64,000 nucleotides of DNA. Source: Candidatus Nomurabacteria bacterium. Lineage in GTDB: Bacteria > Patescibacteriota > Minisyncoccia > Phycocordibacterales > UBA918. Numbering within the stretch: position 1 is the stretch's first letter; each line of letters begins with the position of its first letter. The position numbers and the translations under genes are program-made. Shown in pieces: positions 3,098-62,603 of the stretch. Below the pieces are notes generated by a model. That model had not been told where the DNA came from. It did not search any database and worked only from the letters and a program-made list of their open reading frames with translations. The stretch lies in assembly GCA_020631995.1 (NCBI GenBank), contig JACKGJ010000002.1, positions 26,773 through 90,772 of the forward strand, given 5' to 3'.

Positions 3098-3167
3098 GGT
3101 TTAGTTATACACAGTTAGCGGTAGTACAACGGACTACACTTGGTCCTTAATGTTATATAATTGGGCT

Positions 3168-3914
3168 ATGGAAGAAATCTCGGTTAACGGAGAAAACTAC
3201 GTAAAAGCTAGTGTATTAGCCAAGAATTTTGGCTACACCCCAGATTATATCGGACAACTCTGTCGATCCGAGCAAGTTAAGTGCACCCTGGTTGGCCGTA
3301 GTTGGTATGTTAATGAGGACTCACTCCGTGAACACAGGAAGGGTCGCTACCGAAGTAGCTCTGCCAAATCTAAGGAGCATTTGCGTAAGGCTGTAGTTAA
3401 TCAGTCATCCACAATACCTCAGTCAAAATCTTCATCTTCGTTGAAGTACGAAACAGATGAGAGGGAACTTTTTCCAGTATTAAGCAAAGCTGAAGAAAGA
3501 CATATCGATGATTCCACTGAGGATAGACTAGTATCAAATGTGGCTATAAATAAGCCTATATCGATAGCATCAGTACAAAACGAGGTTAGTACCACAGTAT
3601 CAGGGAATACCTTGGCAATACGTCGTCCTGCGCCCGTTTTACGTACTATCCCAGCCCTGCGATCCACCAAGAGCCCTATAAGAGCTAAACAGACTCCCGT
3701 ATCAAGCAAAAGTGTGTCTGTGACGAGTCGAGTGTCTACAGTGGGTACGTTCGCATTATTCTTAGGACTACTGTTAGTGGAATCAGTGCTACTGTTTGGA
3801 GTCTTGGGCTTAGAAAAGCGTCTTGTCTCTGCAGACAGTAATCAGGCTATGGTTTTGTATGGATTTGATGCAGAAAAGGTCATAGATACAGTAAGACAAA
3901 CATTTCAAAAATAA
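3168..3914 (+). CDS. membrane-tethered protein with N-terminal excisionase/MerR-like HTH and C-terminal TM helix
   Basis: Track ORF 3150-3914. HTH-like text: YVKASVLAKNFGYTPDYIGQLCRSEQVKCTLVGRSWYVNEDSL. An S/T/P-rich linker follows, then TM VGTFALFLGLLLVESVLLFGVLGL. A perfect TATAAT at 3156-3161 lies 6 nt before ATG 3168, so 3168 (MEEISVNG...) is preferred over ATG 3150. The N-terminal module is paralogous to that of the downstream giant ORF. Confidence 0.7.
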   Translation: MEEISVNGENYVKASVLAKNFGYTPDYIGQLCRSEQVKCTLVGRSWYVNEDSLREHRKGRYRSSSAKSKEHLRKAVVNQSSTIPQSKSSSSLKYETDERELFPVLSKAEERHIDDSTEDRLVSNVAINKPISIASVQNEVSTTVSGNTLAIRRPAPVLRTIPALRSTKSPIRAKQTPVSSKSVSVTSRVSTVGTFALFLGLLLVESVLLFGVLGLEKRLVSADSNQAMVLYGFDAEKVIDTVRQTFQK

Positions 3915-3935
3915 AATTATAAAAGTATAAAAGAT

Positions 3936-3959
3936 ATCCCCACATTGGGGATTTTTTTT
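3936..3959 (+). terminator. intrinsic terminator
   Basis: ATCCCC-acatt-GGGGAT hairpin followed by T8. Confidence 0.8.
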
Positions 3960-3993
3960 ATAAATTTATTCTGACATTACTATACAATTACTA

Positions 3994-6900
3994 GTGATGT
4001 CAGATAGTACAGAGCCTTCAGGCGTAGCCGCTTTGAAATCTAAAAAATTTCTTTCCGTCAAAGAGGCGGCTTCTGTTTCTTCTTATACTACTGCCCACAT
4101 AACTAGACTCGCTCAGAAGGGATTAGTCGAGGCTAAACGTGATGGTCGTCAATGGTTGATTGACCCTATTTCTCTCCAAAAATTCGTACTGGAAACAGAA
4201 GAAAAAAAGAAAGTCAGAAAGGAACAATTACGAAAGGAACGAGTGGAGGAATTACATTCTTCTAACGTTGGACAATCTTTAGACGATTCCGAGGAGAGTT
4301 TTTCTATTTTTGATTTTCAAACAGCTGTTATATCTACAGCTTTCACAGTATGTGTTGCTTTACTGTTTTCCTTAGGTGGCGCTTATGGTCAGGATGAATC
4401 AGTGGTTGCTGGTAGTACAGTAGTGTCAGGGGTAGAGAAAATGTCTAATGATTTTAAAGATAGAGTATTTCCTCGCACACGTGATCTGACAGCGACTACA
4501 CTCTTGTCTGCTCCGATTGCTAATTACTCAGGAAAAGTATTGGGATGGTTGTGGTGTGACTTTAAATTACTTTGGTACAAAAACGATAGTTGTGGTGCTC
4601 CACCTATCGAGTATGCCATTGTTCCTAGTGTAAATAATGAGGACTCTAAGGTTGAGACCAAAAATGAAAATGATGTAATTGTGTACAACACTTACATCAC
4701 TAATCCTATAGATAGAGAAGTTGTAGAGCGAGAAATTGTTCGCGAAATTTTCGTTCAGGGAGGTGAGCTCTCCTCTTTTGTCGCATATGTAACTCGCACT
4801 GAATACAATAATCAGGTCGACGCCATAATGCGCTCCATCGAAAATATCGATACTAGTAATAGTGGCGGCGGCGGAGGTGGTACTAGCAATGTCTCTTCTC
4901 TAGAGGATTTGTCAGACGTTGCTTCAATGACTGAGGCTGTTGGTAATTTGTTAGTTTGGACCGGTTCTTCTTGGTCCAACATCGCTACCTCCTCCTTGGG
5001 AATTGTGGGCACTGGTGCTGTCGACTCAGTCAACGGTCAAATCGGCGTAGTAGTACTAGACACTGGAGACATTTCAGAAAACGGTAATCTATACTTCACT
5101 GATGCACGTGCTCGCTCCACTTTATCCTCTACGGCTACTGGTCTTTCATACACTACTTCAACTGGTGTATTTAGTTTGACCAGTGGTTATGTCATCCCAT
5201 TCTCAGCTTCAACTACGCAGTGGGCTAACACTACCAACCTAGTTAACGCATCAAGTTCATCTTGGACTACTGCCTTCAATACCATCAACGCTTCTTCAAC
5301 CTTCTGGGACACTGCATACAGTTGGGGAGATCACAGTCTCGCAGGATACTTAAGCAACATTACTGGTGAATCAGTAGAAAGTCTTTCTGACGTTGCTTCA
5401 ATGACTCAAGCGACTGGTGACCTTCTGTATTGGACCGGTTCTGCTTGGAGTAACATTGCCACTTCTTCGTTGGGAATTTCCGGAGGGGGTGCAGTAGATT
5501 CTGTAAACGGTCAAACTGGCGTAGTGGTACTAGATACTGGAGACATTACAGAAAACGGTAATCTATACTTCACTAACGCTCGAGCTGATGCTCGTATTGC
5601 AGCTGGTACTTCCACTATCCGCAATATGCTCTCCGGCACATCCTCAATCGTATACAACGCTTCAACTGGTGAAATCTCATTCAACAATCCTGGATACATC
5701 ACCGGTACTGCTTGGGGAGATATTACTGGCACACTCTCTAATCAAACAGACCTCCAATTAGCTCTAGACGCTAAACTATCTACCACTACCGCAGCCAGTA
5801 CATACTACCTGGCTTCAAACCCAGCTGGATATACCACTAACACTGGTACTGTTACCTCTGTTGGCCTCACTCTACCAACTGGACTATCTGTGACTGGTTC
5901 ACCAATCACTACTTCAGGTGCATTGGCTGTTACTCTCACTAGTGGTTATGTTATTCCGCTTTCAGCTTCAACTACCGAGTGGTCAACCGCTTATGGTTGG
6001 GGAGATCACAGTCTTGCTGGTTATCTAACCTCAATCACTGGACAATCACTTGAAGACCTTAGTGATGTCGCTTCAATGACTCAAACATCTGGTGACCTTC
6101 TTTCTTGGAACGGTTCAAGCTGGACTAATGTTGCAACCTCATCCCTCGGCTTTGTTGCCACTGAATCCGATCCAATCTTCACTGCCTCAACTGCCTTCGG
6201 TATTGATAACACTGACGTAACTAACTGGAATACCGCTTACGCTTCAACCACCGCCCTCACTCCTTCATACATCCGCAACCTATTCTCTAACTCAGCTACC
6301 GGCCTCACATACAATTCATCTACCGGAGCTACTTCACTAACCGCTGGATACAGTATTCCACTCACAGCTTCAACTACTGCTTGGAACAACACTACCAACC
6401 TAGTTAACGCATCAAGTTCATCTTGGACTACTGCCTTCAATACCATCAACGCATCTTCAACCTTCTGGGACACTGCATACAGTTGGGGGAATCACGGTAT
6501 TGTTGGTTACCTAACCACTGTTGATATTAGTGATAATACTAACTTAGCTGGTGACACTGAGATTGTCCTCACTGGAGACACTCTATCAATCGCTTCATCT
6601 ATCACTCGTGATGCTGAAATAGATACAGAGTCTGAACTAGAGGCCTTCCTCACGGACGTCACTAACATCTTCACTAACAATGATGGTGCACTTAATGACG
6701 ATGACCTCTCAGATAACACCACCACTGACCTAGCAGAAGGCACTAACCAATACTTCACCACCTCACGGGCTCGCTCTGCTCTCTCTGCTGGTGCCGGCAT
6801 TACCTACGCTACCTCTACCGGTATTATTGCCTTGAATGCCACCGGCGACTGGACTGGCACCTTTGACGGTCAAGAAGGTACATACTACCTATCACGTGCT

Positions 6901-33815: not shown

Positions 33816-33818
33816 AGG

Positions 33819-46310: not shown

Positions 46311-46363
46311 TAGTATCAGTATAAGGTGTTAGAGGATACTTGTCAGTCGGTAGTTGTTAGTAG

Positions 46364-47826: not shown

Positions 47827-47834
47827 CCTGCGAC

Positions 47835-48017
47835 CTATGCAAAGTACATCAGTAGTATCCCGAATGCGATGATTGCGAGACCCCCTGTGCCGAGACCTAT
47901 GATTCCTCGGCCTTCGTTTGAAGTTGTTGAAGAATTTTCTTTGTCCATGCAGTAGTCGTTCTCAAACTCCTCCCGCGCCAGCTTTTCTACGTCGATATTC
48001 GGCATATTTGTCTTCAT
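47835..48017 (-). CDS. small (60 aa) C-terminally anchored membrane protein
   Basis: Acidic head followed by GIIGLGTGGLAIIAFGILLMYFA. Its own terminator lies directly downstream. Confidence 0.45.
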   Translation of the reverse strand: MKTNMPNIDVEKLAREEFENDYCMDKENSSTTSNEGRGIIGLGTGGLAIIAFGILLMYFA

Positions 48018-48055
48018 CTCGGCCTCCTCCTATTCAAACCTTATTCTGTCACCAA

Positions 48056-48454: not shown

Positions 48455-48497
48455 TGTATTGGGTTTAATCCCCCACCAATTATATCAATAAGACAGT

Positions 48498-48773: not shown

Positions 48774-48795
48774 CTTTTTCTGAAGTTCGGACAAT

Positions 48796-48828
48796 AAGAA
48801 AGGGCGCGCCTATGGCGCGCCCTTTCTT
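48796..48828. terminator. bidirectional intrinsic terminator
   Basis: AAGAAAGGGCGCGCC-tat-GGCGCGCCCTTTCTT. Confidence 0.85.
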
Positions 48829-48868
48829 ATTATGTTCTGTCTAATTACCAAGAGCTAACTACCAAGCA

Positions 48869-49588: not shown

Positions 49589-49634
49589 AATTTTGATTTT
49601 AACTTACCATTAACTTCTTCAGAAGTCGTATTGG

Positions 49635-50069
49635 TTACTCAATATTAATCTTAAAGGTCGTATGATTCTCGCCTTGAACAAGTTCAACCTCATGCTCACC
49701 AGTAGTTTTGATAGGGGTGGCTATCTTTAGCATGTCTTTTTCTATCAATATTCCCTGCTCCTTGGCTGCGGCCACGATCTCTTCTGGTTTAACAGCAGCG
49801 AAGAGGTGACCCTTGTCGTTTTTTTGATTCTTTAACACTAACACTGATTCAGATAGAGCTTTTTTAGCAGTAAAAAATCTTTCGGTAGCGACATTTTGCT
49901 TCACGCCTTTCTCGGCTTGTATCTGTTCAATTTGCTTTAGGTTGTCCTTGGTTGCTGGTTTAGCCCAACCCTTTGGGATTAATTGATTCAGACCGTATCC
50001 ATCAGGTACATCAACTACCTCGTGCTTACGTCCAATTCTGGCCACGTCCTTTAAGAGAATGACTTTCAT
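49635..50069 (-). CDS. rplI: 50S ribosomal protein L9
   Basis: MKVILLKDVARIGRKHEVVDVPDGYGLNQLIPKGWAKPAT. SD AGGAG lies upstream. Confidence 0.9.
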   Translation of the reverse strand: MKVILLKDVARIGRKHEVVDVPDGYGLNQLIPKGWAKPATKDNLKQIEQIQAEKGVKQNVATERFFTAKKALSESVLVLKNQKNDKGHLFAAVKPEEIVAAAKEQGILIEKDMLKIATPIKTTGEHEVELVQGENHTTFKINIE

Positions 50070-50093
50070 AGGTCTCCTAATATACCTTAAAAC

Positions 50094-51389
50094 TTAAAAC
50101 TTAACACCCAACTTCTCTCCAATGGTCTTGTCTCCCTTGAGCCACTTGAGAGCAGCCTCCATTTGCTTATCTATACCCTCCATTACTTCTTGTGGGGTTC
50201 GAGGAATGTATACATTCGGTTCTAAACCTCCTTCTGAGAAGGATACTCCTTCTGGGGTAAGCCACCTAGCAATGGTAACTTTCAAAGCGCTCTTATCTGG
50301 TAGGTTGACTAATTCTTGCACAGAGCCTTTTCCGAAGGTGGTGTCACCGATGGTGGTGGCGATTTTATGCTCTGAGAGAGCTCCTGCCAAAATTTCTGAT
50401 GCCGAAGCTGAACCACCGTTAATCAGTACAACAAAGTTGTCTGGATTCAAATTAAATAATCTCTGCCCTTGAGTACGGTAGACATCTTCCTCTTTACCTT
50501 CACCAAAGTTTTCACGAACCACTACCTTGCCGGCTGGTAGGAAGTAACCAGCGATGGTGACAGCACTTTCAAGGAATCCGCCTGGATTACCACGTAGGTC
50601 AAGGATCAGATTATCCTTTCCGCTTTGTTCAAACTGGGTTATTGCTTCACGCATCTTTGACTCCGAGATACCGTTGAAACTGTACAGCTTTATCACAAAA
50701 GCGTTGTCCTTGGTCTCAGTATCAAGGGTTGGAATATTTATGACCTGACGAATGATTTTCTTCTCGAGCAGTTCGACTTCACCTTCACGATAAATCGTAA
50801 GTGTCACTTCAGTACCAGCTTCGCCACGGATGAGGCGTACCGCCTCATCGACATTCATACGATCAGTAGAGGTGTCATCAATCTTGGTAATGATGTCGCC
50901 GGTTTGGATACCTGCACCAAGAGCTGGAGAATCAGGTAATGGAGCAATGATGGTGATAAGGCCATCACGCAGTCCTACTTCCATTCCGACCCCACTAAAG
51001 TTTCCAGAGATGTCCTCAGCGAAATATGAGGCGTCTTCAGGTGGCATATAGACAGTGTATGGGTCACCATAACTGTCTACCATTCCAGCGATAGCTCCTC
51101 GCAACCTGTCGGTCTGGTTTGGAGTACTGGTTGGAGATGAAGTAACAAACTTCTCTTCCAAAAGATTCCAAACTCGCCAAAATTCACCGAGGTCTGCCTC
51201 GTCGTCTGGCTTCTCCTTAGAATATAGGAAACTGAATATACTAGCTTCTAGTGGTGACTCTCCTTTTATTCCTCCTTGTCCGAATTGGACTCCGGAGAAG
51301 AAGGCAGCTACTGCCAACATAGCGGCTAGCCCGATTCCGAGCAGTTTTCCGTTATTTTTAGTTTTCTTAGTTGTCTGTTCATTTTGCAT
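50094..51389 (-). CDS. S41 C-terminal processing peptidase with PDZ domain
   Basis: GVGMEVG, PDSPALGAGIQTGDIITKID (PDZ), LDLRGNPGGFL, NGGSASASEI, TFGKGSVQ. Extended -10 TGcGATAAT (complement of 51396-51404) lies 6 nt before the ATG. Confidence 0.9.
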   Translation of the reverse strand: MQNEQTTKKTKNNGKLLGIGLAAMLAVAAFFSGVQFGQGGIKGESPLEASIFSFLYSKEKPDDEADLGEFWRVWNLLEEKFVTSSPTSTPNQTDRLRGAIAGMVDSYGDPYTVYMPPEDASYFAEDISGNFSGVGMEVGLRDGLITIIAPLPDSPALGAGIQTGDIITKIDDTSTDRMNVDEAVRLIRGEAGTEVTLTIYREGEVELLEKKIIRQVINIPTLDTETKDNAFVIKLYSFNGISESKMREAITQFEQSGKDNLILDLRGNPGGFLESAVTIAGYFLPAGKVVVRENFGEGKEEDVYRTQGQRLFNLNPDNFVVLINGGSASASEILAGALSEHKIATTIGDTTFGKGSVQELVNLPDKSALKVTIARWLTPEGVSFSEGGLEPNVYIPRTPQEVMEGIDKQMEAALKWLKGDKTIGEKLGVKF

Positions 51390-51497
51390 TCGGCTATTAT
51401 CGCATAACGGCTTATATATCGGAAATGTGGAATACTGATGCTTTCAAGTATCATTTAACCTTTCTCTGCTTCGGCTAATTCTGTTAGAATGGTCCTA

Positions 51498-52946
51498 ATG
51501 TTACGTTTATTCAAACGCCCACCTATTCGCGAGCCGATTTTTCTCTATAACACTGCTTCGCGCACAAAAGAAGAGTTCGCTCCGCTTAAAAAAGGGAAAG
51601 TCACCATGTATAGCTGTGGTCCGACTGTCTATGATCATATACACATTGGTAATTTGCGTGCCTATCTCTTGCCAGACCTTTTGACTAGACTCTTTCTCTA
51701 TAACGGCTACCGTGTTAACTCCACTATCAACTTCACTGACTTTGGTCACTTAACCGACGACGCTGATGCGGGTGAAGACAAGATGGTGAAGGGTATGAAA
51801 CGAGAGGGTTATGACATCACACTCGACAATATGCGTGTGTTTGCAGAACCGTATATAGAATCATTTAAAGAAGACAATCTGGCTTTCGGAAACCGCCCCC
51901 CTACCCAATTCTCTCGGGCTAGTGACTACATCAAAGAACAAATAGCCTTAATTCGGACCCTTGAAGAAAAAGGCTACGCTTACCGAACTTCTGACGGTCT
52001 CTATTTTGATATCTCTAAGTTTCCATCGTATGGAAAGCTAGGTAATGTCGATATTGAAAAAATGAAGGCAGGGGCCAGAGTCGAGGTTAATGAAGAAAAG
52101 CACCACCCAGCTGATTTCTCGCTTTGGAAGCTGTCTGACCTTGGTTGGGAGAGTCGATGGGGTAAGGGTTTCCCTGGTTGGCACATAGAATGTACCGCTA
52201 TGGCTTTCGCTACCCTTGGTAAGCAGATTGATGTTCACACCGGTGGTGAAGACCTTCAATATACTCACCACAATGGTGAAGTAGCTCAAGCTGAGGCTGT
52301 GACCGGAAAGCATTATGTGAACTATTGGCTTCATAATGCTCATATCACGATAGATAGTATGAAGATTGCTAAGTCTCTTGGTAACGGTCTCCGCCTCAAG
52401 CATTTAGCAGATAGAGGGTTCTCCCCCACTGTCTATCGTTACTGGCTACTCCAGAGTCATTACCGTTCAGGCGCCAACTTTACCTGGGAGGCTATGACTG
52501 CTTCTAAGAATGCTTTGACTCGCTTATACCGTCTAGTCTATGAAGAGTTGGTGGGACTTCGTCCTGGAATGGTTAATGAAGATTATGAAAGACGCTTCTT
52601 GCAAGCTTTGTCTGATGACCTCGATACTCCACGGGCGCTATCGATACTTTGGGAGTTAGCGAAAGACACTAGCGTGGAGTCAAAGGAAAAGCTTGCCACT
52701 ATTCATGCTTTTGATTCACTGCTGGCAATTGGTTTGTCTAAAACACCTGACGAAGGTCGTCATATTTTAGGAGTTGTAGAAGAAGAGGATGTACCAGAGG
52801 TGGTACGTGAATTGAGTGTGCGTCGCGAAGCGGCGCGCGCTGCCAAAGACTTCGCTCTATCTGACCAGCTCCGAGAAGAAATTAAAGCTAATGGTTATGA
52901 AACGAAAGACACTCCTGAGGGGTCACAGCTAAGCCGGGTGGATTAA
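51498..52946 (+). CDS. cysS: cysteinyl-tRNA synthetase
   Basis: HIHIGNLRAYL (HIGH) and KIAKSLGN (KMSKS). Track ORF starts at ATG 51489, but that codon overlaps the extended -10 TGtTAGAAT (51482-51490). ATG 51498, 7 nt downstream, is preferred. Confidence 0.9.
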   Translation: MLRLFKRPPIREPIFLYNTASRTKEEFAPLKKGKVTMYSCGPTVYDHIHIGNLRAYLLPDLLTRLFLYNGYRVNSTINFTDFGHLTDDADAGEDKMVKGMKREGYDITLDNMRVFAEPYIESFKEDNLAFGNRPPTQFSRASDYIKEQIALIRTLEEKGYAYRTSDGLYFDISKFPSYGKLGNVDIEKMKAGARVEVNEEKHHPADFSLWKLSDLGWESRWGKGFPGWHIECTAMAFATLGKQIDVHTGGEDLQYTHHNGEVAQAEAVTGKHYVNYWLHNAHITIDSMKIAKSLGNGLRLKHLADRGFSPTVYRYWLLQSHYRSGANFTWEAMTASKNALTRLYRLVYEELVGLRPGMVNEDYERRFLQALSDDLDTPRALSILWELAKDTSVESKEKLATIHAFDSLLAIGLSKTPDEGRHILGVVEEEDVPEVVRELSVRREAARAAKDFALSDQLREEIKANGYETKDTPEGSQLSRVD

Positions 52947-53048
52947 GTCCTTATCAGTGCAGGTTATTTTGTACTTTTCCCCACTGTCCACTTAGTCCAC
53001 AATTGTCATACCCAAACGTCAATCGGCTGTCGGTGCTAAAATAGACAA

Positions 53049-54425
53049 ATGGTAGATTTAAATAAAAGTTTGCGTGTCCCTCCACATAACATCGAAGCTG
53101 AGCGAGCACTGCTCGGAGCAATCATCCTAAAGCCGGAAACTATCCACGATGTATCCGCCATTGTTTATCCAGAAAGTTTTTATGCAGACAAGCATCGCGA
53201 AATCTTTCGTGCTATTTTTGAAATCTTTGCAAAGGGTGACCCTATTGATCTGCTTTCAGTATCAACTCGCCTTAAACACAATGGTCAGATAGAGAGAGTC
53301 GGAGGTGCAGCTTATTTAACTGAACTTATCGAAACAGTACCAGCGGCCGGTAACGCCATCTATTACGCTACTGAGGTTCAAAACAAATCGAGCTTGCGTG
53401 GCCTCATTCATGCTGGGGATGATATCGCTGAGCTCGGTTACTCTAACCCAGACAATATTGACTCCACTTTGGACCAAGCAGAAAAGAAAGTGTACGAAGT
53501 TACCAACCAAACCACACTGCAAAAATTTGTCACTATTGGTTCAGCCTTAACCGAAGCGTGGGAGCGGTTTGAGCACTTAAGTGAGAATCATGATGATATT
53601 CGTGGTGTACCGACTGGTTTTGCTGGAATTGATAACCTGCTTGCTGGTCTCCAAAAGTCTGACCTCATCATCTTAGCTGCCCGTCCATCTATGGGTAAGA
53701 CTACCTTTGCTATGGACTTAGCTCGTAATGCTGCGGTTAAGTATAAAAAGTCAGTGGGTATATTCTCACTCGAAATGAGTTCGCAACAGCTAGTGGACCG
53801 TATGCTTGCGTCAGAGGCGGGAGTAGACTCTTGGAAGCTTCGTACTGGTAAGCTGAAGAGCGACCAAGAATTCGAAGCGGTGCAGGCTGCGATGGCACGA
53901 CTCTCTGAAGCGTCTATTCATATTGATGACCAACCAGGCACTAATATTTTGAAAATGCGTTCTTCTGCTAGACGACTCCATCATGAACACGGTCTAGACC
54001 TGCTTATTGTGGACTACCTTCAGCTGATGTCCCCTACCGCCACTAAATCATCTGACTCGATGACGCAACAAGTGACTGAGATATCGCGTTCCTTGAAGAT
54101 TCTCGCTCGTGAGCTCGATGTACCAGTCCTTGCTCTCTCTCAGCTTTCTCGGGCGGTGGAACAGCGCGGTGGACGACCGCGACTGTCTGACCTTCGTGAC
54201 TCAGGTTCTATTGAGCAGGACGCGGACGTCGTGATGTTCATTCACCGTGAAGATAAACTTAATAAAGAATCAGAGCGACCAAACATTGCAGAAATTCTCG
54301 TGGAGAAGCACCGTAACGGTCCGGTCGGAATGGCAGAACTCTACTTTGATGAGAAGCATGTACGTTTCTTGGATATTGATAAGCAACACTCTAATGCTGC
54401 TATGGCTGCAACCGAAGACTTTTAA
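53049..54425 (+). CDS. dnaB: replicative DNA helicase
   Basis: PPHNIEAERALLGAIIL and Walker A ARPSMGKTTFAM. Extended -10 TGcTAAAAT (53034-53042) lies 6 nt before the ATG. Confidence 0.95.
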   Translation: MVDLNKSLRVPPHNIEAERALLGAIILKPETIHDVSAIVYPESFYADKHREIFRAIFEIFAKGDPIDLLSVSTRLKHNGQIERVGGAAYLTELIETVPAAGNAIYYATEVQNKSSLRGLIHAGDDIAELGYSNPDNIDSTLDQAEKKVYEVTNQTTLQKFVTIGSALTEAWERFEHLSENHDDIRGVPTGFAGIDNLLAGLQKSDLIILAARPSMGKTTFAMDLARNAAVKYKKSVGIFSLEMSSQQLVDRMLASEAGVDSWKLRTGKLKSDQEFEAVQAAMARLSEASIHIDDQPGTNILKMRSSARRLHHEHGLDLLIVDYLQLMSPTATKSSDSMTQQVTEISRSLKILARELDVPVLALSQLSRAVEQRGGRPRLSDLRDSGSIEQDADVVMFIHREDKLNKESERPNIAEILVEKHRNGPVGMAELYFDEKHVRFLDIDKQHSNAAMAATEDF

Positions 54426-55051: not shown

Positions 55052-55108
55052 TGTGCTATAGTTTTACGTAGCAGGGAAGCTGTCTCAACATATTGAAAAG
55101 GAGATGGC

Positions 55109-55363
55109 ATGCTAGACAAACAACTAGAACACTCACTGGCTGACAAGAAAAAAATCATCATTCTCTACAGAGCGGTTGTGCATTATTCGCACAGCTCCGT
55201 TCAGGACACGGTGAGATTTCTTGTCCCACGTGTGCCCCTTTCTGATCTCGCAAAGATGGGAATTGAATGGGGTAATGCGCGGAGCTGGTGGGAGTGGAGA
55301 GTTACGGAAAAGGAGAAGCAGCGGCTTGGACTGGAATATAAATTTGCCGCAAAGCTTCCATGA
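55109..55363 (+). CDS. orphan hypothetical protein (84 aa), GC-elevated cassette 1
   Basis: SD AAAGGAG lies 5 nt before the ATG. A GC-rich terminator follows immediately. Trp-rich text (ARSWWEWRVTEKEKQRLG). No family recognised. Confidence 0.5.
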   Translation: MLDKQLEHSLADKKKIIILYRAVVHYSHSSVQDTVRFLVPRVPLSDLAKMGIEWGNARSWWEWRVTEKEKQRLGLEYKFAAKLP

Positions 55364-55365
55364 AC

Positions 55366-55398
55366 ATGCCCGGGTGCGTTTACCACGCACCCGGGCAT
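55366..55398 (+). terminator. GC-rich intrinsic terminator
   Basis: ATGCCCGGGTGCG-tttacca-CGCACCCGGGCAT followed by AATTTTAT. Confidence 0.8.
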
Positions 55399-55420
55399 AA
55401 TTTTATACCCGGCACAAAAT

Positions 55421-55450
55421 AAAAACTCCCTTTTGGGAGTTTTTACTTTT
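55421..55450. terminator. bidirectional intrinsic terminator (serves rplU on the minus strand)
   Basis: AAAAACTCCC-tttt-GGGAGTTTTT followed by ACTTTT. Its reverse complement is identical to the 24-nt hairpin at 37126-37149. Confidence 0.8.
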
Positions 55451-55458: not shown

Positions 55459-55803
55459 TTAGATCTTGGTGATTTCAACGCGTGAGTACTTCTGTCGATG
55501 ACCAATCTTTCGGTCACGGTTACTCTTAGCCTTATATCGAACGATAGTGATCTTCTTACCCTTCTTAAGTCCAAGGTAGGTAGCGGTGACAGTAGCGCCA
55601 TCAATGTATGGTGTACCAAGAGTGGCAGCCTTACCATCGTCAGACATTACAACTTTATCAAAAGTAACTTTGTCTCCTTCAGCGTAGTCACCCAAAAGCT
55701 CGACATCGATGATGTCGCCAGCAGAAACGGCATATTGCTTCCCTCCAGTTTCAATAACTGCGAAGTCGGTGCCGAGTTCTTTTTTAGGCGCTTTTGTAGG
55801 CAT
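55459..55803 (-). CDS. rplU: 50S ribosomal protein L21 (short basic N-terminal extension)
   Basis: FAVIETGGKQYAVSAGDIIDVE...RYKAKSNRDRKIGHRQ. Confidence 0.9.
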   Translation of the reverse strand: MPTKAPKKELGTDFAVIETGGKQYAVSAGDIIDVELLGDYAEGDKVTFDKVVMSDDGKAATLGTPYIDGATVTATYLGLKKGKKITIVRYKAKSNRDRKIGHRQKYSRVEITKI

Positions 55804-55830
55804 AGTGGCGATATCCTACCTCAAAGATGG

Positions 55831-56159: not shown

Positions 56160-57212
56160 CTAATCATCCTCATCCTTCGTTGGCTTGTCTAGTGTCATCA
56201 CCTCCACTCCTCCGACTTCGCCGGTGATACGAGTGACATCCTTATCCATCTTAGCTAGTTCCTTGTATCCAGCGTTGTAGTGATTAACGGTAGTGGCTAG
56301 TGTATTACCCAGCTTCTGATAGTAGTCTTCGTACTTTCCAATATGAATACCGAGCTTTTCAACATTCTTGATGATGTCCTTGGCCTTCTCTTCAATCTCC
56401 AGAGCTTTGAGACCTTGGAGTACGGTTTGAAGATAAGCCAAGAATGAGGTTGGTGAAACAATAATGACCTTGTACTTTCCAGCTGCTCGCTGAATGAGGT
56501 TCTCTTCCCCGCCGGTGATGTGATTTGAAAGTAGGTCGTAGTAGACACCTTCGGACGGAATAAACATAAAAGCAAAGTCAGTAGTCTTCTCGGTTGGACG
56601 CACATACTTGGCGGTTTCAGTAATACGGTTTTTAAGGTCATTGATGAAAAGTTTTTCAAGCGCTGCTCGTTCAGCTGGATCATGCGCTTCCACCAGACGG
56701 TTATAGTTTTCGAGTGAAAACTTTGAGTCGATAGGAATCACTTTATCTTTCACGAAAACGGCCGCATCCACTATCTCACCGTTTTCAAAAGCGTACTGCA
56801 TTTGAAAACTGCCTGGTGGCAGGACATTCTGAAGCACAGTCTCTAAATAATACTCACCAAGAATTCCACGTTGTTTAGGGTTTTTTAGTACATCTTGGAG
56901 TTGGCGGAGCTGTTCGGCGAAGCCAACTACCTGGCGGTTGGTTTCTCCAAGTTTAGTTAAACCCTCAGTTACTTCGCGTACGATTTTATTTGATTCACCG
57001 AGCTGAGTCTTTACTGACTCTTGAATGGCACGGTTTCCCTCACCGAGTCTCCGGTCCATCGTGTCGCGCAGTGTCTCCATTTGTTGCTGAATAAACAAAA
57101 GGCCGTCTCGTCCTTCGGTTTTATCTTCGGTCTTTCTAAAGAAGGTTGAGTAAACCTGGATCAGTAAAACTGCTGCCAATACCACCACTACAATGATTTG
57201 AATCACTTCCAT
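56160..57212 (-). CDS. rmuC: DNA recombination protein RmuC
   Basis: N-terminal TM, a coiled coil, and FAFMFIPSEGVYYDL. Extended -10 TGtTAAAAT (complement of 57220-57228) lies 7 nt before the ATG. Confidence 0.85.
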   Translation of the reverse strand: MEVIQIIVVVVLAAVLLIQVYSTFFRKTEDKTEGRDGLLFIQQQMETLRDTMDRRLGEGNRAIQESVKTQLGESNKIVREVTEGLTKLGETNRQVVGFAEQLRQLQDVLKNPKQRGILGEYYLETVLQNVLPPGSFQMQYAFENGEIVDAAVFVKDKVIPIDSKFSLENYNRLVEAHDPAERAALEKLFINDLKNRITETAKYVRPTEKTTDFAFMFIPSEGVYYDLLSNHITGGEENLIQRAAGKYKVIIVSPTSFLAYLQTVLQGLKALEIEEKAKDIIKNVEKLGIHIGKYEDYYQKLGNTLATTVNHYNAGYKELAKMDKDVTRITGEVGGVEVMTLDKPTKDEDD

Positions 57213-57401
57213 AAGGGCTATTTTAACATAGGGTATTAATGGGCTCTGTCACTAGGGCCTACACGTATCATTGATGATACGTAGACCCTCCTTATTATCG
57301 ATGATAAGGAGAGAGGAGGTTGATAGTAAATGAAGTCGGAGGTCTTGTTTATGACAAAAAGTTTAATCCCGAATAAATAGGATTACGAGTACTATAAAAT
57401 C

Positions 57402-57457
57402 GAAAAAAAGAAAATCGCCACCCAAAGAATCACGGATGGCGATTTTCTTGGGTGGCG
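57402..57457 (-). terminator. intrinsic terminator of GC-rich cassette 2 (two overlapping alternative hairpins)
   Basis: Read on the minus strand: CGCCACCCAAGAA...TTCTTTGGGTGGCG followed by ATTTTCTTTTTTT. An alternative 12-bp pairing is AGAAAATCGCCA / TGGCGATTTTCT. Confidence 0.7.
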
Positions 57458-57464
57458 AAAGTTG

Positions 57465-58085
57465 TTAATCGCTCATCACCATAGCAAGGCGTTGAACAGC
57501 GATGTCGAGAGTGCCGAATTGTGAATTGCGCTTGAGAAATTCGACGGCAACCTTCGCCCTGAGCTTCTCATTCCGCTTTCCGCTATCGAAAAGGGCTTCA
57601 CGGAGACGCCCTTGTGCCATCCATAGGCCAGGCAGGAACCATAGCTCCCAGAACTGACCGGACTTCATGTCTCGTTGGGAACGCATACAGACGAATCCAC
57701 ACTCCGTCAGAAAATTCGCCTGATCCTTGTAGTTCTGTGGCGTGTAGTGGAACCCGCAGAGATGCTGGATAATGATTGAGGGAGAGCTGTGGCGATGGTA
57801 TGCCTCAACGCTGTCGCCCAGAGAAAACATTTCCATCTGCACCGACGCAGGGTTACCAGCCGGTTGCCAAAACGGATGCATCTCCATATCCTGCTCTGGT
57901 GCCGGTAGCTGCTCGTATGCAGGTACGTGCTCCAAACGGCCGTCTTGTCCACGCCGCACCCAGTGGAAGCCTGCTTTGAAAGCACCAAGGAGGAGATCAG
58001 TCTCTTCCTCCTGCGCTCCACTGATGGTGAATCTGCCAGGACCGTGTGCGGACACGTCAATCGTTGCAATTTCGTCGGTCTTCAT
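57465..58085 (-). CDS. orphan hypothetical protein (206 aa), GC-rich cassette 2
   Basis: Track ORF 57465-58103. SD AGGAG lies 8 nt before ATG 58085 (MKTDEIATIDV...). My hand count of 57841-57940 gives 59 G+C per 100 nt, against 44 per 100 in 56401-56500. Three overlapping shadow ORFs are typical of a GC-rich insert. No family recognised. Confidence 0.6.
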   Translation of the reverse strand: MKTDEIATIDVSAHGPGRFTISGAQEEETDLLLGAFKAGFHWVRRGQDGRLEHVPAYEQLPAPEQDMEMHPFWQPAGNPASVQMEMFSLGDSVEAYHRHSSPSIIIQHLCGFHYTPQNYKDQANFLTECGFVCMRSQRDMKSGQFWELWFLPGLWMAQGRLREALFDSGKRNEKLRAKVAVEFLKRNSQFGTLDIAVQRLAMVMSD

Positions 58086-58260
58086 GGTGATGACTCCTGT
58101 CAATGAAAGTTGATACCGATGGCTACAATGTCACATCTACTCGCTAAACACAAGACTGCTTAATTAGACGGATTTCCTGAAAAAGAACAGTATATGATTC
58201 CAACCCCGACCCACTAAGGTCACTTTCCACTTTCCACTTTTAACTCTATACTAGTTTTAT

Positions 58261-58716
58261 ATGTCATTACATTCCGATATCAAAGGTGAACTTAAGGAGG
58301 CGATGAAAGCTAGGGACGAAGTGCGACTACGTACTGTTCGTGGCATGATGACCGCTTTTACCAATGAGTTAGTAGCGACTGGTAAAACACCACAGGATGA
58401 ACTAGATGATGCTAGTGTTTTAGCGGTTATTAAGCGTTTGGCTAAACAACGCAAGGAGTCTATTGTGCAGTTTGAAGCCGCAGGGCGAAATGAATTGGCT
58501 GAGCCTGAGAAGCTTGAGCTTGTAGTACTTGAGGGCTACCTTCCTCAAATGATGAGTCAGGAGGAAATTGAACCAATTGCTAAAGCTAAGCTTGAAGAAA
58601 TGGGTATTGCTGACAAATCTAAAATGGGAGTCGCTATTGGTGCAGTAATGAAGGAATTGAATGGAAAGGCAGACGGAGGTGATGTGAAGGTAGTGGTTGA
58701 AAAACTCCTCACCTAA
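58261..58716 (+). CDS. GatB/YqeY domain protein
   Basis: LKEAMKARDEVRLRTVRGMMTAF...LEGYLPQMMSQEEIE. TATACT (58247-58252) lies 8 nt before the ATG. Confidence 0.85.
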   Translation: MSLHSDIKGELKEAMKARDEVRLRTVRGMMTAFTNELVATGKTPQDELDDASVLAVIKRLAKQRKESIVQFEAAGRNELAEPEKLELVVLEGYLPQMMSQEEIEPIAKAKLEEMGIADKSKMGVAIGAVMKELNGKADGGDVKVVVEKLLT

Positions 58717-58848
58717 AGCTTGCTTTTAAATCGCGATTTGCTACGTTGGACCGCAAAAAATGGCACTCACTGGACTACCTCTGTCCCGTTCGTGCCCTTT
58801 TTCTTGTCCGCTTTGCATATCATCAATTTTAAAACAATCTTATGAGTA

Positions 58849-58887
58849 TGTGGATAAATTGCTTTTTATGCAATTTTGTGGTATATT
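58849..58887 (+). promoter_or_regulatory. perfect DnaA box abutting a sigma70-type promoter (TTGCTT-N17-TGgTATATT)
   Basis: TGTGGATAA at 58849-58857, -35 TTGCTT at 58859-58864, and extended -10 TGg-TATATT at 58879-58887. Confidence 0.5.
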
Positions 58888-58935
58888 ATAGGTCGGTATA
58901 GAGTATTGACGACAATCTATCAAGGAGATTCAGTC

Positions 58936-59253
58936 GTGAACTCACAAAGACAATTTGTTTCTGGACTTCCTGGTCCAGATAGAACCCAGAAGAAAACGTT
59001 ACAACAAGCGTTGGATGATTTGGGTCGAGCCATCCAGGAAAGAAAGTTGCGTGACAGGCACATTCCTCCTAGCGATCATTCCTCCAATGAGGTGAAAGAA
59101 AAAGAGGAAGAAAAAAAAGCCCTCCTCGAGGAACTGGATGCTGAGGAGTGGTACGCTGAGAAAGCTCGGCGTGAGAAAGTCCAAGCTGCTTTCGCGGCAG
59201 CCTGGGCACGGCGCGACCATCTTCTTTCTGACGATGACCAGTTACCCTTCTGA
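58936..59253 (+). CDS. orphan hypothetical protein (105 aa), GC-elevated cassette 3
   Basis: Lies in track ORF 58876-59253. SD AAGGAG lies 8 nt before GTG 58936. Charged helical text (EEKKALLEELDAEEWYAEKARREKVQAAFAAAWARR). A GC-rich terminator follows. Confidence 0.45.
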   Translation: MNSQRQFVSGLPGPDRTQKKTLQQALDDLGRAIQERKLRDRHIPPSDHSSNEVKEKEEEKKALLEELDAEEWYAEKARREKVQAAFAAAWARRDHLLSDDDQLPF

Positions 59254-59260
59254 CGAAACC

Positions 59261-59290
59261 CACCCGCGACCTTTGCTAAGGCCGCGGGTG
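59261..59290. terminator. GC-rich hairpin between convergent genes
   Basis: CACCCGCGACC-tttgctaa-GGCCGCGGGTG followed by AATTGTTTAT. Confidence 0.6.
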
Positions 59291-59296
59291 AATTGT

Positions 59297-60001
59297 TTAT
59301 ATCTCCTCCGCATCCTCAACTTTAAATTCCCCTACTTTGGTGCGACGAAGTGATTCAAGTCTGGCTGGGTAATCACCCAGTCGTTTGCCAAGTTCCTCTC
59401 CCAGTGAGCGAATATATGTTCCACTACCCACATAAAAACGGGCTTTAATTATTACGGTTTTGGTTTCAGTATCATATTTAATATCAAGAAGCTCGGCTTC
59501 ATAGACTTTCATTTCACGAATTGGAAGCTCCGAGTCCTGTATCACTTCGTCTTGTCGCGCCACAGCGCGAGCTTTTTTATAAAACGGTACACCGTCTTGC
59601 TTGATAGCCGAGTAGGCGGAGACTGGAAGAGTTAAGGTGCCCACCATTGAGGCCAAGGCGACAGAAACTTTCTCCATAGAAAAAGTTTCTGTCGCATCCG
59701 CTTCAGTAATCTCCCTCTCCTTTAGTACTCGACCGTCTCTATCTCCACTCTCTGTTCTCACACCTATTAATATTTCGGTGACGTATTCTTTATCGAGCTT
59801 GGTGAGCTCGGTCAATTTCTTGGTCCCCTCACCTACTCCAATGATCATAAGTCCCGACGCTAAAGGGTCCAAGGTCCCAGCGTGACCCATCTTTCTAATA
59901 TTTAATTTGGGACGCAAACGGCGAATAACATCAAAGGACGATATTCCAACTGGCTTATCAATCAGTAGTATGTGTGGGTATATGGATGTGTTGATCATCA
60001 C
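59297..60001 (-). CDS. truB: tRNA pseudouridine-55 synthase
   Basis: LLIDKPVGISSFDV and GHAGTLDPLASGLMIIGVG. Its 5' end overlaps the 3' end of the ATPase gene by 44 nt. Confidence 0.9.
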   Translation of the reverse strand: MMINTSIYPHILLIDKPVGISSFDVIRRLRPKLNIRKMGHAGTLDPLASGLMIIGVGEGTKKLTELTKLDKEYVTEILIGVRTESGDRDGRVLKEREITEADATETFSMEKVSVALASMVGTLTLPVSAYSAIKQDGVPFYKKARAVARQDEVIQDSELPIREMKVYEAELLDIKYDTETKTVIIKARFYVGSGTYIRSLGEELGKRLGDYPARLESLRRTKVGEFKVEDAEEI

Positions 60002-62552
60002 GGTATACGATAATCCATTTTGCTAATTCAACCAAGGCAATGTTAGCGATTATCCATAGCATCACGAAGAAGAGCCAAGTAACAGGTAGTGCCACTGTTC
60101 CGAATAAACTCTGGAAGAATGGTAGGTAAATGGTTAATAGGATTAGACAGACCCCTAGTCCAAGCCCAAAGTTTAATACTTTATTCTCAAACATTGGATA
60201 GGTGAACAGAGGCTTGCGAAGATTGCGGAAAGAAACAGCCACAAAGAGGATATAGCTAGAAAAACAAGCAAACAAAAATGATCGGCCAATGGCATTATCA
60301 AAACCAAATTTTATCGTCAGATAGTGAAGGGCGAGAAGCGCTGCGGAACTCACAATACCAATCCCGAAAGTGAGGGCAACTACTTCGCGACTCAATATAG
60401 CTGGCTCCTTGTGACGACGGAATGTTCTTTGTTGGTCGAAAGCGTAAGCGATGGCCGGTATTCCTCCAGTGAAAAAGTTAACCCAAATAACCTGCAGTGG
60501 TGTGAGTGGTAGTGAGAGACCAAGTGCTAACGAACCACCAAGTAACACTATTTCATCAAAACAGTTGGACATTAGGTAGACAAAAGACTTGCGTATGTTG
60601 GCTATAATTAGTCGCCCTTCTTCTATAGCAGCCTTAATAGTATGGAAGTCGTCATCAAGGAGCACTAGGTCGGCTACTCCTTTCGCCACGTCAGTTCCGC
60701 TCCCTACTGCTACTCCAATCGATGCGCGCTTCAATGATGGCGCGTCGTTCACCCCATCTCCGAGCATTGCCACCACTTGCCCATCGGCTTCGAGCATCTC
60801 GATGAGGCGGTACTTATCACTTGGTGTCATACGCGCAAAGATGCGCACTCTCGATAACGCATCCTGCAGTTCTTCGTCTGTCATATTCCCCATACTCTCA
60901 CCGGTCAGAACGTGCTTGTCGCTCCCTGGCCAACCTAAAGACTTGGCAATAGCTATGGCGGTGCCAGGCAGGTCACCAGTAGCCATAATGATGCGACAGC
61001 CAGCCGATTCAATATTGGCTATTGCTTCTTTCATTTTGGGACGTAGTGGGTCGTAGAATACTAAGAGTCCGACGAACTCGATTGTGAAATCTTTATCCTC
61101 TCCCGGTCGTTTTATCCCTACTCCCAACAACCGCTTACCAGAACCGCTTTCCTTTTCTAAGGTATCGAGTACCTTTTGGTGATCCTTGGCAGTTAGTTTG
61201 GCGTGTCGCAGTAATACATCTGGTGCGCCGAGTATCACCTCCTTTCCATCAGACTCATATATAGAGTATTTGTGTGCAGATGAGAAAAGTTTTACCGGCT
61301 TAGTGTTCTTGAGAACCTTAAGTACATTGATCCCCTGTTTGATGGCTGCATTCACAATACCAACATCAAGGTGTCGACCGGTCACTTTCCATTTCTGTGG
61401 TGATTTATCAATGTTGCTGATAATAGTGGAGGTGTTAGCGACAGCGTAGGCTAAAATCGTTTTCTTGCTTTCGGTCACTGAGGGCGTTCCGTTTAGGATA
61501 GAAGCAATACTTAACACTTCAACTAACTCCAACTTCCCGGTGGTCAATGTACCAGTCTTGTCCGTGATGATTACATTCGTACTACCAAGCGTTTCAGCGG
61601 CGAGAAGTGAGCGCACAATACCGCGGCTTTTTGCAATACGCTCCACTCCGACCGCCAAGATAGCGGTGAGGCCAGGTGGCAAGGCTTCAGGAATAGCTCC
61701 GACGGCGATAGCTACTCCAAGTAGGAAGATGTCGAGGTGTTCCATTCCGCGTGCCATACCGAGTATGTACACCACTCCTACTAGTACGAGTGTGATAAAG
61801 GTAATAACCCAGCCCAGTGACGAGACAGCTTTCTGAAGCGGAGTCTTTTCGCTTTTTTGGGTCAGAACTGATTCTGCTATCTGACCAAATTCCGTCTCTA
61901 TTCCAGTGGCGGTGATTAATATACGCCCTTGTCCTTCGGCTACGTAGGTACCGCCAAAGACCATATTGGAACGCTCTGGCAGTGAAGATGCTTCGGCGAG
62001 CACGCCACCTTGCTTGACTACTGGTAGGGATTCTCCGGTCAGGATAGACTCATCTATAGCGAGTTCGTGACTTTCGATTATCCGACCGTCGGCGGGAATG
62101 CGCTCTCCAGCGCGCAGTAAGATGATATCGCCTGGTACAGTCCACTTAGCTTCGGCTTCCATTTCGCGACCATCTCTTATGAAACGTACGCGTTCTTCAA
62201 TATATGACTTCAACGCAGCAGTTGCTCTTTCGGCTTTGTATTCTTGATAGAATCCCAAGCCTACTGAAGTAACAACAGCTAGCAAGATAAACAGAGCGTC
62301 TACTATATCTTCAAAGTATAAGGTGACAGACGCAGCTACTAACAGGATGATGATAAGAGGGCTAGCAAACTGTCGCAAAAAAGTCAGTAATGTTGAGTGA
62401 TTAGCACCCTCACCAAAAGTGTTTTGCCCGTAGGTGGTTAGTCTATCTTTTACTTGCTTTTCAATCAGTCCGTCCCCCTTACTCACCTCTAGTTGTTTTA
62501 GAAGAGAGTCGATATTCTTTGCCCACGCGTTTTGGATAGTGTTAGGTTTCAT
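59958..62552 (-). CDS. P-type cation-transporting ATPase (P2-like, Ca2+/Mg2+ type)
   Basis: LTGESLPV, ITDKTGTLT, MATGD, GDGVNDAPSLK, and about 10 TM segments. TATACT (complement of 62560-62565) lies 7 nt before the ATG. Confidence 0.9.
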   Translation of the reverse strand: MKPNTIQNAWAKNIDSLLKQLEVSKGDGLIEKQVKDRLTTYGQNTFGEGANHSTLLTFLRQFASPLIIILLVAASVTLYFEDIVDALFILLAVVTSVGLGFYQEYKAERATAALKSYIEERVRFIRDGREMEAEAKWTVPGDIILLRAGERIPADGRIIESHELAIDESILTGESLPVVKQGGVLAEASSLPERSNMVFGGTYVAEGQGRILITATGIETEFGQIAESVLTQKSEKTPLQKAVSSLGWVITFITLVLVGVVYILGMARGMEHLDIFLLGVAIAVGAIPEALPPGLTAILAVGVERIAKSRGIVRSLLAAETLGSTNVIITDKTGTLTTGKLELVEVLSIASILNGTPSVTESKKTILAYAVANTSTIISNIDKSPQKWKVTGRHLDVGIVNAAIKQGINVLKVLKNTKPVKLFSSAHKYSIYESDGKEVILGAPDVLLRHAKLTAKDHQKVLDTLEKESGSGKRLLGVGIKRPGEDKDFTIEFVGLLVFYDPLRPKMKEAIANIESAGCRIIMATGDLPGTAIAIAKSLGWPGSDKHVLTGESMGNMTDEELQDALSRVRIFARMTPSDKYRLIEMLEADGQVVAMLGDGVNDAPSLKRASIGVAVGSGTDVAKGVADLVLLDDDFHTIKAAIEEGRLIIANIRKSFVYLMSNCFDEIVLLGGSLALGLSLPLTPLQVIWVNFFTGGIPAIAYAFDQQRTFRRHKEPAILSREVVALTFGIGIVSSAALLALHYLTIKFGFDNAIGRSFLFACFSSYILFVAVSFRNLRKPLFTYPMFENKVLNFGLGLGVCLILLTIYLPFFQSLFGTVALPVTWLFFVMLWIIANIALVELAKWIIVYRDDQHIHIPTHTTD

Positions 62553-62603
62553 TTATACCAGTATAACGTGGCGCTATATGAAAATGACCGTGGTTTCAAC
62601 AGG

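Follow-up and report, generated by a model that had tools for sequence, protein, structure and literature searches.

How does a bacterium choose its start codons when most of its conserved genes carry no Shine-Dalgarno (SD) sequence? The question is raised by a 64,000-nt stretch of Candidatus Nomurabacteria contig JACKGJ010000002.1, here called the window, in which many genes have a -10 promoter hexamer just ahead of the start codon. The window belongs to a genome of the Patescibacteria, or Candidate Phyla Radiation (CPR), class Paceibacteria, of the Kaiserbacteria-Nomurabacteria type. A protein identical to its DnaB is encoded on GCA_020632025.1 contig JACKGK010000001.1, and the DnaB of Patescibacteria group bacterium UBA6201 shares 97% identity with it; the 79 matches that follow UBA6201 in the search all come from Patescibacteria metagenome-assembled genomes (MAGs); another window protein is 100% identical to NCBI hypothetical protein H6788_01850 [Candidatus Nomurabacteria bacterium]. 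A large part of bacterial diversity belongs to the CPR, of which hardly any member has been cultured, so that sequence is the basis on which their gene expression is judged. The geometry found here is, in our view, best explained by leaderless transcription, to which we assign a probability of roughly 80%: transcripts would begin on or next to the start codon, and initiation would take place on a 5'-terminal AUG.

Before evaluating this explanation, we established that the geometry itself is real. The sequence-only reading of the window had listed 13 operon-leading genes with a -10 hexamer 6-8 nt before the ATG, several of them with an extended TGn, and all lacking an SD. All 13 hexamers were found where claimed, on the strands claimed (Table 1); six are preceded by TGn (mraY, the methyltransferase gene at 37599, cysS, dnaB, S41 peptidase and rmuC), and a 5-mer SD match 4-18 nt before the start occurs at none of the 13 genes. 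We then used 46 window starts curated by homologue N-termini and family profiles, including obg (ATG 629, MFVDE...), gatB (ATG 1652), scpB (ATG 26100), the 239-aa form of PPIase and the 350-aa form of rmuC; a few of them (3168, 26100 and 51498) had been picked with the -10 box in view, each with independent support. TANNNT precedes 21 of these 46 starts at a spacing of 5-9 nt, and S41 (GATAAT) and obg (AATAAT) are near-matches beyond the 21. Cases additional to the earlier list are scpB, orf92, the M23 peptidase gene, rplI, rplU, orf140 (TTG 43399) and obg, at 9 nt.

Such hexamers could in principle be functionless, TANNNT falling near starts by chance in AT-rich intergenic DNA, since the pattern is frequent (2149 sites on both strands of the window) and, with the test displaced 10-40 nt upstream, still matches 4-12 of the 46 genes. 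However, shuffled 40-nt upstream sequences yielded 7.2 +/- 2.4 of 46 matches at the same spacing, with a maximum of 18 in 5000 trials, and the 21 matches observed lie above every shuffle. The positional peak is also sharp: a count of TANAAT followed by ATG, which is independent of gene calls, peaks in the window at spacings of 6-8 nt (5, 10 and 5 occurrences, versus 0-4 elsewhere), and in 1.36 Mb of related loci at spacings of 6-10 nt. Among crude gene calls in related loci (n=1431), the signal peaks at -15 to -12, and the geometry is present in 587 calls versus 238 at a control offset. The geometry is therefore confirmed, and it is stronger than first stated.

Conservation of the geometry was assessed in 80 species-level loci around dnaB, by scoring an in-frame start near the aligned N-terminus of each orthologue, 5-10 nt after TANNNT, with the two other frames as the null. 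The counts for individual genes are included in Table 1, to which the RNase T gene adds 35 of 43 orthologues, whereas the out-of-frame nulls amount to about 5-15%. In S41 orthologues the box takes the form of TG-n-(G/A/C)ATAAT variants, which the strict TANNNT pattern misses. In raw upstream sequences, wherever the N-terminus is a few codons longer or shorter, box and ATG have moved jointly, and the flanks around them cannot be aligned. A hexamer-anchored logo of 479 conserved genes of this type revealed T at -15 (67%), G at -14 (59%), A at -9 (62%) and A at -8 (55%), positions that were not imposed by the search pattern. Given a spacing that is kept where the flanks have fully diverged, and enriched bases that the search did not require, we count chance as already refuted. 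The same logo holds no information near -35, and a generic -35/-10 scan showed no enrichment (36 found versus 30 +/- 5.8 in shuffles), which fits promoters without a -35 element, so that the scan lends no independent support. To judge by its base pattern, the motif is a sigma-70-type extended -10 promoter (TGnTAnAAT) without a recognisable -35 element.

To extend the comparison beyond single genes, about 1430 crude gene calls in 81 loci were clustered by BLASTP. The geometry precedes 51-54% of the genes with homologues in at least 5 loci, and 19% of the singletons, close to the positional background of 16-17%. By upstream context, it was found at 59-61% of the conserved genes that follow a same-strand neighbour after 11-100 nt, at 56% of the divergent ones, and at 25% of those with gaps of at most 10 nt. 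These figures bear on the possibility that the TA-rich element is a translational signal on a leadered mRNA, such as an S1-binding site or an AU-rich enhancer, instead of a promoter. AU-rich non-SD signals near starts are indeed known in other phyla (PMC3160421). Nevertheless, the information in the motif falls exactly at the sigma-70 contacts (T-12, A-11 and T-7), with the extended -10 TG one base upstream, and the element stands in divergent intergenic regions, which need a promoter, at the frequency of 56% just given. We therefore consider a purely translational role very improbable.

Under leaderless transcription, RNA polymerase at the extended -10 would begin transcription on the first base of the start codon or no more than about 3 nt away from it: with a 6-nt spacer the A of the ATG is the canonical +1, and spacers of 7-9 nt leave a leader of at most 1-3 nt. 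About half of the conserved genes would then be expressed from leaderless, largely monocistronic mRNAs, including genes located 40-60 bp behind a same-strand neighbour, and the ribosome would bind the 5'-terminal AUG of these mRNAs without an SD. Abutting conserved genes (gaps of at most 10 nt) carry neither signal and would presumably be translationally coupled. Because same-strand gaps of 11-100 nt and divergent arrangements show the geometry equally often, most conserved genes appear to own a promoter. The enrichment of terminator-like hairpins in the window (38 versus 17.6 +/- 3.8 in shuffles), about twice the shuffled level, suggests that intrinsic termination is used, fitting many short transcription units; strong hairpins of this kind separate convergent or successive units.

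The boxes could also be real promoters that give leaders of a few nucleotides, or transcripts could come mainly from promoters further upstream; as in Bacteroidota or cyanobacteria, translation would then rely on a leader that is unstructured and needs no SD. Relatives often show spacings of 9-10 nt (for instance at rplU and dnaB), from which leaders of 1-3 nt and no strictly leaderless transcripts would result, a point that also counts against our own explanation; moreover, some conserved genes are clearly leadered and have no SD, among them ftsW, whose TATAAT (29803-29808) stands 22 nt ahead of the ATG, and rpmA, most orthologues of which have TATACT some 30 nt upstream. On the other side, the modal spacing in the window is 6-7 nt, from which a start exactly on the A of the ATG is expected, and more than 90% of the leaderless-type starts are ATG, as expected for 5'-terminal initiation. 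In mycobacteria, furthermore, leaders of up to 5 nt behave as leaderless. We thus regard leadered initiation as quite unlikely to account for the geometry in general. The leaderless claim of the sequence-only reading gains strong indirect support from the positional enrichment, the extended -10 signature and the spacing kept across about 80 species, which together make it probable but fall short of proof. As a separate observation, rpmA (L27) and orf132 (Ada-type zinc-binding domain) diverge across 43 bp only and have interleaved promoters (48455-48497), the TATAAT of orf132 being the reverse complement (ATTATA) that abuts the rpmA ATG, and the TATACT of rpmA lying within the 5' end of orf132; this arrangement is kept across the clade (the window and about 45 related loci).

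The second part of the question concerns the genes that do carry an SD. Clear AGGAG-type SDs had been claimed for scpB, rplI, the 50-aa open reading frame (ORF) at 35397, the mini-DnaA gene and three GC-rich orphans. The motifs are present at orf50, mini-DnaA and the GC-rich orphans, whereas the calls for scpB and rplI had to be withdrawn. First, the GAGGAG of scpB (26074-26079) comes before a GTG (26085) and also before the -10 box, a perfect TATAAT that is itself followed, after 6 nt, by ATG 26100; since the family profile sets in at residue 8 of the long version, scpB counts among the leaderless-type genes. Second, the AGGAG of rplI lies inside the 9-nt spacer between TATATT and ATG, an SD is found in 0 of 53 rplI orthologues, and the closest relative has no AGGAG; several orthologues show TGaTATAGT at 8-9 nt (9 nt in the loci L002 and L003). 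The genuine SD-led genes of the window are therefore six, namely, orf50, mini-DnaA, orf60, orf84, orf206 and orf115, all of them lineage-specific, with AGGAGG-type motifs at spacings of 3-8 nt; only mini-DnaA belongs to a Pfam family, and orf115 has its own promoter, giving a leader of about 40 nt ahead of the SD. Several of the SD-led orphans, of 50-70 aa, combine an acidic or polar N-terminus with a single C-terminal hydrophobic helix and look tail-anchored (35397-35549 and 47835-48017); the slot matching the tail-anchored-type orphan in the nearest species representative (L001, at about 4470-4690) holds a different protein of the same type.

This division recurs across the clade. A 5-mer SD precedes 1-2% of the genes with homologues in at least 5 loci and 23% of the singletons (Fisher odds ratio 15.6, p = 2e-34, a per-gene value that overstates independence because conserved families are repeated across species), and the SD singletons are spread over 48 of the 81 loci. 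At the family level, 0 of the 28 conserved families of the dnaB neighbourhood reach 20% SD. Replication in 80 metagenome loci around gltX gave, for conserved genes, SD at 1.3-1.7% and leaderless geometry at 43-51%, and for singletons 10% and 30%, respectively (odds ratio 8.0, p = 3e-6; 0 of 27 families SD-led). Conserved genes without leaderless geometry have SDs at 1-3% in every context, which is background. The SD singletons have AGGAGG-type motifs 5-9 nt before the start, are short (median 125 aa), cluster with other singletons and, in about 85% of cases, match neither Pfam nor PHROG. On average their GC is that of the local core, but GC at third codon positions (GC3) is more dispersed than in the core (|z| 1.5 versus 0.78; mean GC3 z +0.5), 17% of them lying above +2 sd versus 2% of core genes.

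In these data SDs are thus genuinely associated with orphan and mobile genes, but the association is statistical and has exceptions. The proposal that native genes are leaderless and foreign ones SD-led captures a trend across the clade and is not a clean rule, two of its own examples, scpB and rplI, having been wrong. Accessory genes with leaderless geometry include the restriction-modification (RM) methyltransferase gene at 37599, beside the integrase, and the antitoxin-like orf92; conserved genes that are leadered and without an SD are ftsW, rpmA and orf132. Likewise, the description of the SD orphans as GC-rich fits those of the window, and clade-wide it is a tendency only, so that high GC was rejected as a general property in favour of the GC3 dispersion and its high tail. 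That they are foreign was shown directly for orf206 alone, and a phage origin of SD orphans in general was also discarded in view of the missing Pfam and PHROG matches. Operon position as the cause of SD use was rejected too, since SDs on singletons are as frequent in divergent contexts.

Several points weigh against our interpretation of these data. The clade-wide gene calls are rough, being taken from the first ATG of ORFs of 80 aa or more; a singleton is a gene without a homologue within about 20 kb in the loci of other species, which does not prove it accessory; and the conserved class comprises 28 + 27 families from two neighbourhoods, repeated across species, with the effect on p-values mentioned above. 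A Parcubacteria subgroup is, in addition, reported to be without an anti-SD motif (Tsurumaki et al., 2022; PMC9297842). The contrast could thus be an artefact of gene calling, of a synteny-based definition of conserved genes, or of operon position, and the 77% of singletons that have no SD may include spurious ORFs. Nevertheless, the contrast holds in every upstream context, divergent genes included, and it survives a scan of all candidate starts against out-of-frame nulls, with an SD excess of 21% for singletons and 2% for conserved genes, and a leaderless excess of 8% and 36%, respectively. In addition, none of the 55 conserved families is SD-led, the SDs are canonical in motif and position, and the segments of the window that do not align to its nearest relative, described below, all carry an SD-led ORF. 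An artefact is therefore unlikely. That the vertically inherited core of the Paceibacteria has almost fully abandoned the SD in favour of extended -10 promoters fused to start codons and mostly monocistronic leaderless mRNAs, with orphan, phage-linked and island genes as the main users of the SD, seems to us an even bet. In the leaderless explanation itself, SD initiation persists, but nearly all its users are lineage-specific orphan or mobile genes placed in variable slots that separate conserved genes. The core may avoid the SD through genome compaction by fusion of promoter and start codon, or through a weak SD dependence of the lineage, and the split may arise as new genes arrive with their own SD.

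Evidence for lineage specificity came from alignment of the window to its syntenic nearest species representative (L001), with which it shares about 80% nucleotide identity. The segments that do not align are four (47796-48042, 55078-55415, 57229-58259 and 58701-59306), and they hold exactly orf60, orf84, orf206 and orf115. Among the 25 genes of the region covered by L001, SD-led genes are 4 of 4 in non-aligning segments versus 1 of 21 elsewhere, the one being the doubtful rplI (hypergeometric probability about 4e-4, by hand). The matching slots of L001 hold different small ORFs, again with an SD.

Of these orphans, orf206 is the one for which a tie to viral contigs was found. It sits in a 1-kb segment absent from L001 and belongs to a family of 41 homologues of about 200 aa, patchily distributed in Patescibacteria MAGs, with a Patescibacteria-type gene context in 2 of 4 hosts examined and one homologue on a contig of 63.5% GC. 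The GC of these genes stays at 0.52-0.55 although that of their hosts is 0.41-0.51, an SD-like motif lies upstream of the homologues in 3 of 4 hosts, and 14 viral contigs in IMG/VR, the longest of 470 kb, carry relatives. Patchiness, constant GC and viral-contig relatives together mark orf206 as a mobile, phage-linked gene. The family is uncharacterised, and has 29 invariant residues and a conserved C-G-Y/F...G-F-x-C-M-R-S motif. The SDs kept across 40-50% protein divergence in this family argue that the ribosome still reads them, and would indirectly support a functional anti-SD (CCUCC) at the 3' end of its 16S rRNA. Conserved 16S motifs were absent from about 2.3 Mb of related loci (the dnaB and gltX neighbourhoods), and the 10 kb past the window end contain protein-coding gene calls only.

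Leaderless transcriptomes have reportedly been mapped by differential RNA sequencing (dRNA-seq), by Cortes in 2013 in Mycobacterium tuberculosis and by de Groot in 2014 in Deinococcus deserti. The likeness lies in the many genes whose transcripts open with AUG or GUG right behind a -10 box; in those organisms, unlike here, where the architecture is read from sequence, the leaderless class is backed by dRNA-seq, and leadered core genes commonly have an SD. Group C of GeneMarkS-2, which comprises Actinobacteria and Deinococcus-Thermus, is modelled with a Pribnow box 6-8 nt ahead of the gene that leads an operon, with about 25-50% of transcription units predicted to be leaderless (Lomsadze et al., 2018; PMC6028130). 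It resembles our case in the -10 box just ahead of start codons and in the leaderless prediction, but its remaining genes are modelled with an SD, whereas here the conserved non-leaderless genes have SDs at a background of 1-2%, and the genomes are Patescibacteria of 42-47% GC with an extended -10 and no -35. A TA-like TANNNT signal about 12 bp upstream of starts was described earlier (Zheng et al., 2011; PMC3160421), with the same position and inference, and with a TG peak in low-GC genomes too; that survey predates CPR genomes and reports no partition between core and accessory genes. Within the same broad lineage, an anti-SD motif was detected in only 48% of Parcubacteria, which is independent evidence of relaxed SD-dependent initiation (Tsurumaki et al., 2022; PMC9297842); that paper does not connect this with leaderless mRNAs, and our case differs from it in that canonical SDs persist here on orphans.

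A limited literature search returned no paper linking leaderless mRNAs with Patescibacteria, CPR, Parcubacteria or Saccharibacteria. The leaderless architecture is therefore of an already known bacterial kind, apparently undescribed for the CPR, and the association of SDs with orphans is new as far as this search could show. A core that is mostly leaderless and driven by extended -10 promoters would, if true, belong to the basics of CPR biology. If the core has also almost abandoned the SD, one cell would have two translation-initiation regimes, the presence of an SD would mark young or mobile genes, and there could be a link to anti-SD erosion in some Parcubacteria. If the tie between SDs and orphan or mobile genes holds genome-wide, the SD would become a cheap sequence marker for recently gained genes. 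It also raises the testable question of how genes are expressed upon entering an SD-poor, leaderless genome.

A practical consequence concerns start codons. For PPIase, rmuC, scpB, cysS and orf248, the choice of the start beside the -10 box agrees with the N-termini of homologues or with family profiles. Both start revisions proposed earlier agree with public calls, namely, 3168 with the NCBI product of 248 aa (P0042) and 51498 with the 482-aa CysS. In orf248, the putative N-terminal extension MLYNWA encodes the conserved TATAAT box, and the conserved 'YN' in long calls of its homologues is this box read as codons; since the NCBI pipeline already places the start at 3168, annotation copes silently with the pattern. 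The scpB ATG at 26100 encodes MKLDAQIEALLF, and position 2 of TIGR00281, the ScpB equivalog profile, aligns to residue 8 of the long version from GTG 26085. Wrong starts do occur in public metagenome calls: PPIase (48869-49588) was given 171 instead of 239 aa, which is too short as its homologues align from residues 1-15 of the long form; rmuC (56160-57212) has 306 aa in one source, wrongly, and 350 aa in another; and scpB (26085-26654) was given 189 instead of 184 aa. An SD-biased caller on a leaderless genome would yield such errors, which could bias the protein lengths and N-terminal domain completeness reported for the CPR.

Table 1. Start regions of window genes with a -10 box beside the start codon or with an SD.
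Gene	Signal, spacing and start codon	Positions	Strand	Support or orthologues with the geometry
orf248	TATAAT 3156-3161, 6 nt, ATG 3168	3156-3170	+	248-aa product called by NCBI
giant ORF	TACAAT 3983-3988, then GTG 3994 or ATG 3997 (spacing 5 or 8)	3983-3999	+	
scpB	TATAAT (perfect) 26088-26093, 6 nt, ATG 26100 (revised start)	26088-26102	+	TIGR00281 alignment
orf92 (antitoxin-like, upstream of yafQ)	TATACTAT, 6-8 nt, ATG 27916	27902-27918	+	
mraY	TGaTAGAAT 28481-28489, 6 nt, ATG 28496	28481-28498	+	
M23 peptidase	TAAAAT 33807-33812, 6 nt, GTG 33819	33807-33821	+	
orf50 (50 aa, C-terminal transmembrane segment)	SD GAGGAAG, 3 nt, ATG 35397	35387-35399	+	
N4/N6 methyltransferase (RM module gene 1)	TGtTACAAT, 7 nt, ATG 37599	37583-37601	+	
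mini-DnaA (edge of integrase/RM island)	SD AGGAGGAG, 3 nt, ATG 40623	40612-40625	+	
murI	TATACT (complement of 42316-42321), 6 nt, ATG 42309	42307-42321	-	
LOG	TATACT, 7 nt, ATG 46310	46308-46323	-	35/39
orf60 (small tail-anchored protein)	SD AGGAGGAGG, 5 nt, ATG 48017	48015-48031	-	
PPIase	TAAAAT, 7 nt, ATG 49588 (239-aa form)	49586-49601	-	homologue N-termini
rplI (L9)	TATATT 50079-50084, 9 nt, ATG 50069; AGGAG 50074-50078 within spacer	50067-50084	-	
S41 peptidase	TGcGATAAT, 6 nt, ATG 51389	51387-51404	-	TG-n-(G/A/C)ATAAT kept in orthologues
cysS	TGtTAGAAT, 7 nt, ATG 51498	51482-51500	+	44/57
dnaB	TGcTAAAAT, 6 nt, ATG 53049	53034-53051	+	62/78, 55 with TGn
orf84 (55109-55363; variable slot after recR)	SD AAGGAGA, 4 nt, ATG 55109	55098-55111	+	
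rplU (L21)	TAGGAT, 9 nt, ATG 55803	55801-55818	-	54/67, mostly spacing 9-10
rmuC	TGtTAAAAT, 7 nt, ATG 57212 (350-aa form)	57210-57228	-	50/50
orf206 (57465-58085; GC 0.54)	SD AGGAG, 8 nt, ATG 58085	58083-58098	-	
yqeY	TATACT, 8 nt, ATG 58261	58247-58263	+	42/58
orf115	promoter TGgTATATT 58879-58887; SD AAGGAG 58922-58927, 8 nt, GTG 58936	58879-58938	+	
P-type ATPase	TATACT, 7 nt, ATG 62552	62550-62565	-	13/15

With regard to gene content, GC is 41-47% in the window outside the 7293-aa giant ORF. Public gene calls and Pfam identified a compact set of core genes: obg, gatB, scpB, mraY, ftsW, murG, gltX, murI, ROK kinase, LOG, RNase T, rpmA, PPIase, rplI, S41 peptidase, cysS, dnaB, recR, rplU, rmuC, yqeY, truB, P-type ATPase, ygjP and PIF1 helicase. 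Accessory genes make up an island with integrase, RM and mini-DnaA genes (about 35.4-41.4 kb), the yafQ toxin pair and a number of small orphans. A scan of the window against Rfam found no RNA family, and the window holds no tRNA, including beside the integrase.

The segment 35397-41441 is a probable integrated mobile island that carries a tyrosine integrase (36105-37103), the N4/N6 methyltransferase, orf286 (likely a restriction enzyme), a Dam-like methyltransferase and mini-DnaA, a protein of 272 aa with DnaA_N and DnaA_C domains and without the AAA+ module; the RM genes of the island have a GC of 0.33-0.39. The yafQ pair (27916-28451) lies between the S11 peptidase gene and mraY, the toxin gene (28191-28451) overlapping the upstream 92-aa antitoxin-like gene orf92 by 4 nt. 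Long and perfect GC-rich hairpins with stems of 14-18 bp occur at 48793-48831, 55366-55445 and 57408-57449, at convergent gene ends and after orf206, the last of them being a terminator hairpin upstream of rmuC. Finally, the giant ORF (3997-25878; 7293 aa) shows negative GC skew and contains, at 23443-24740, 8.5 copies of a 153-bp unit; the spacing of about 1434 bp of its shadow ORFs (6507, 11457 and 12891) suggests larger internal modules; its only family match is a weak Kelch repeat near the C-terminus.

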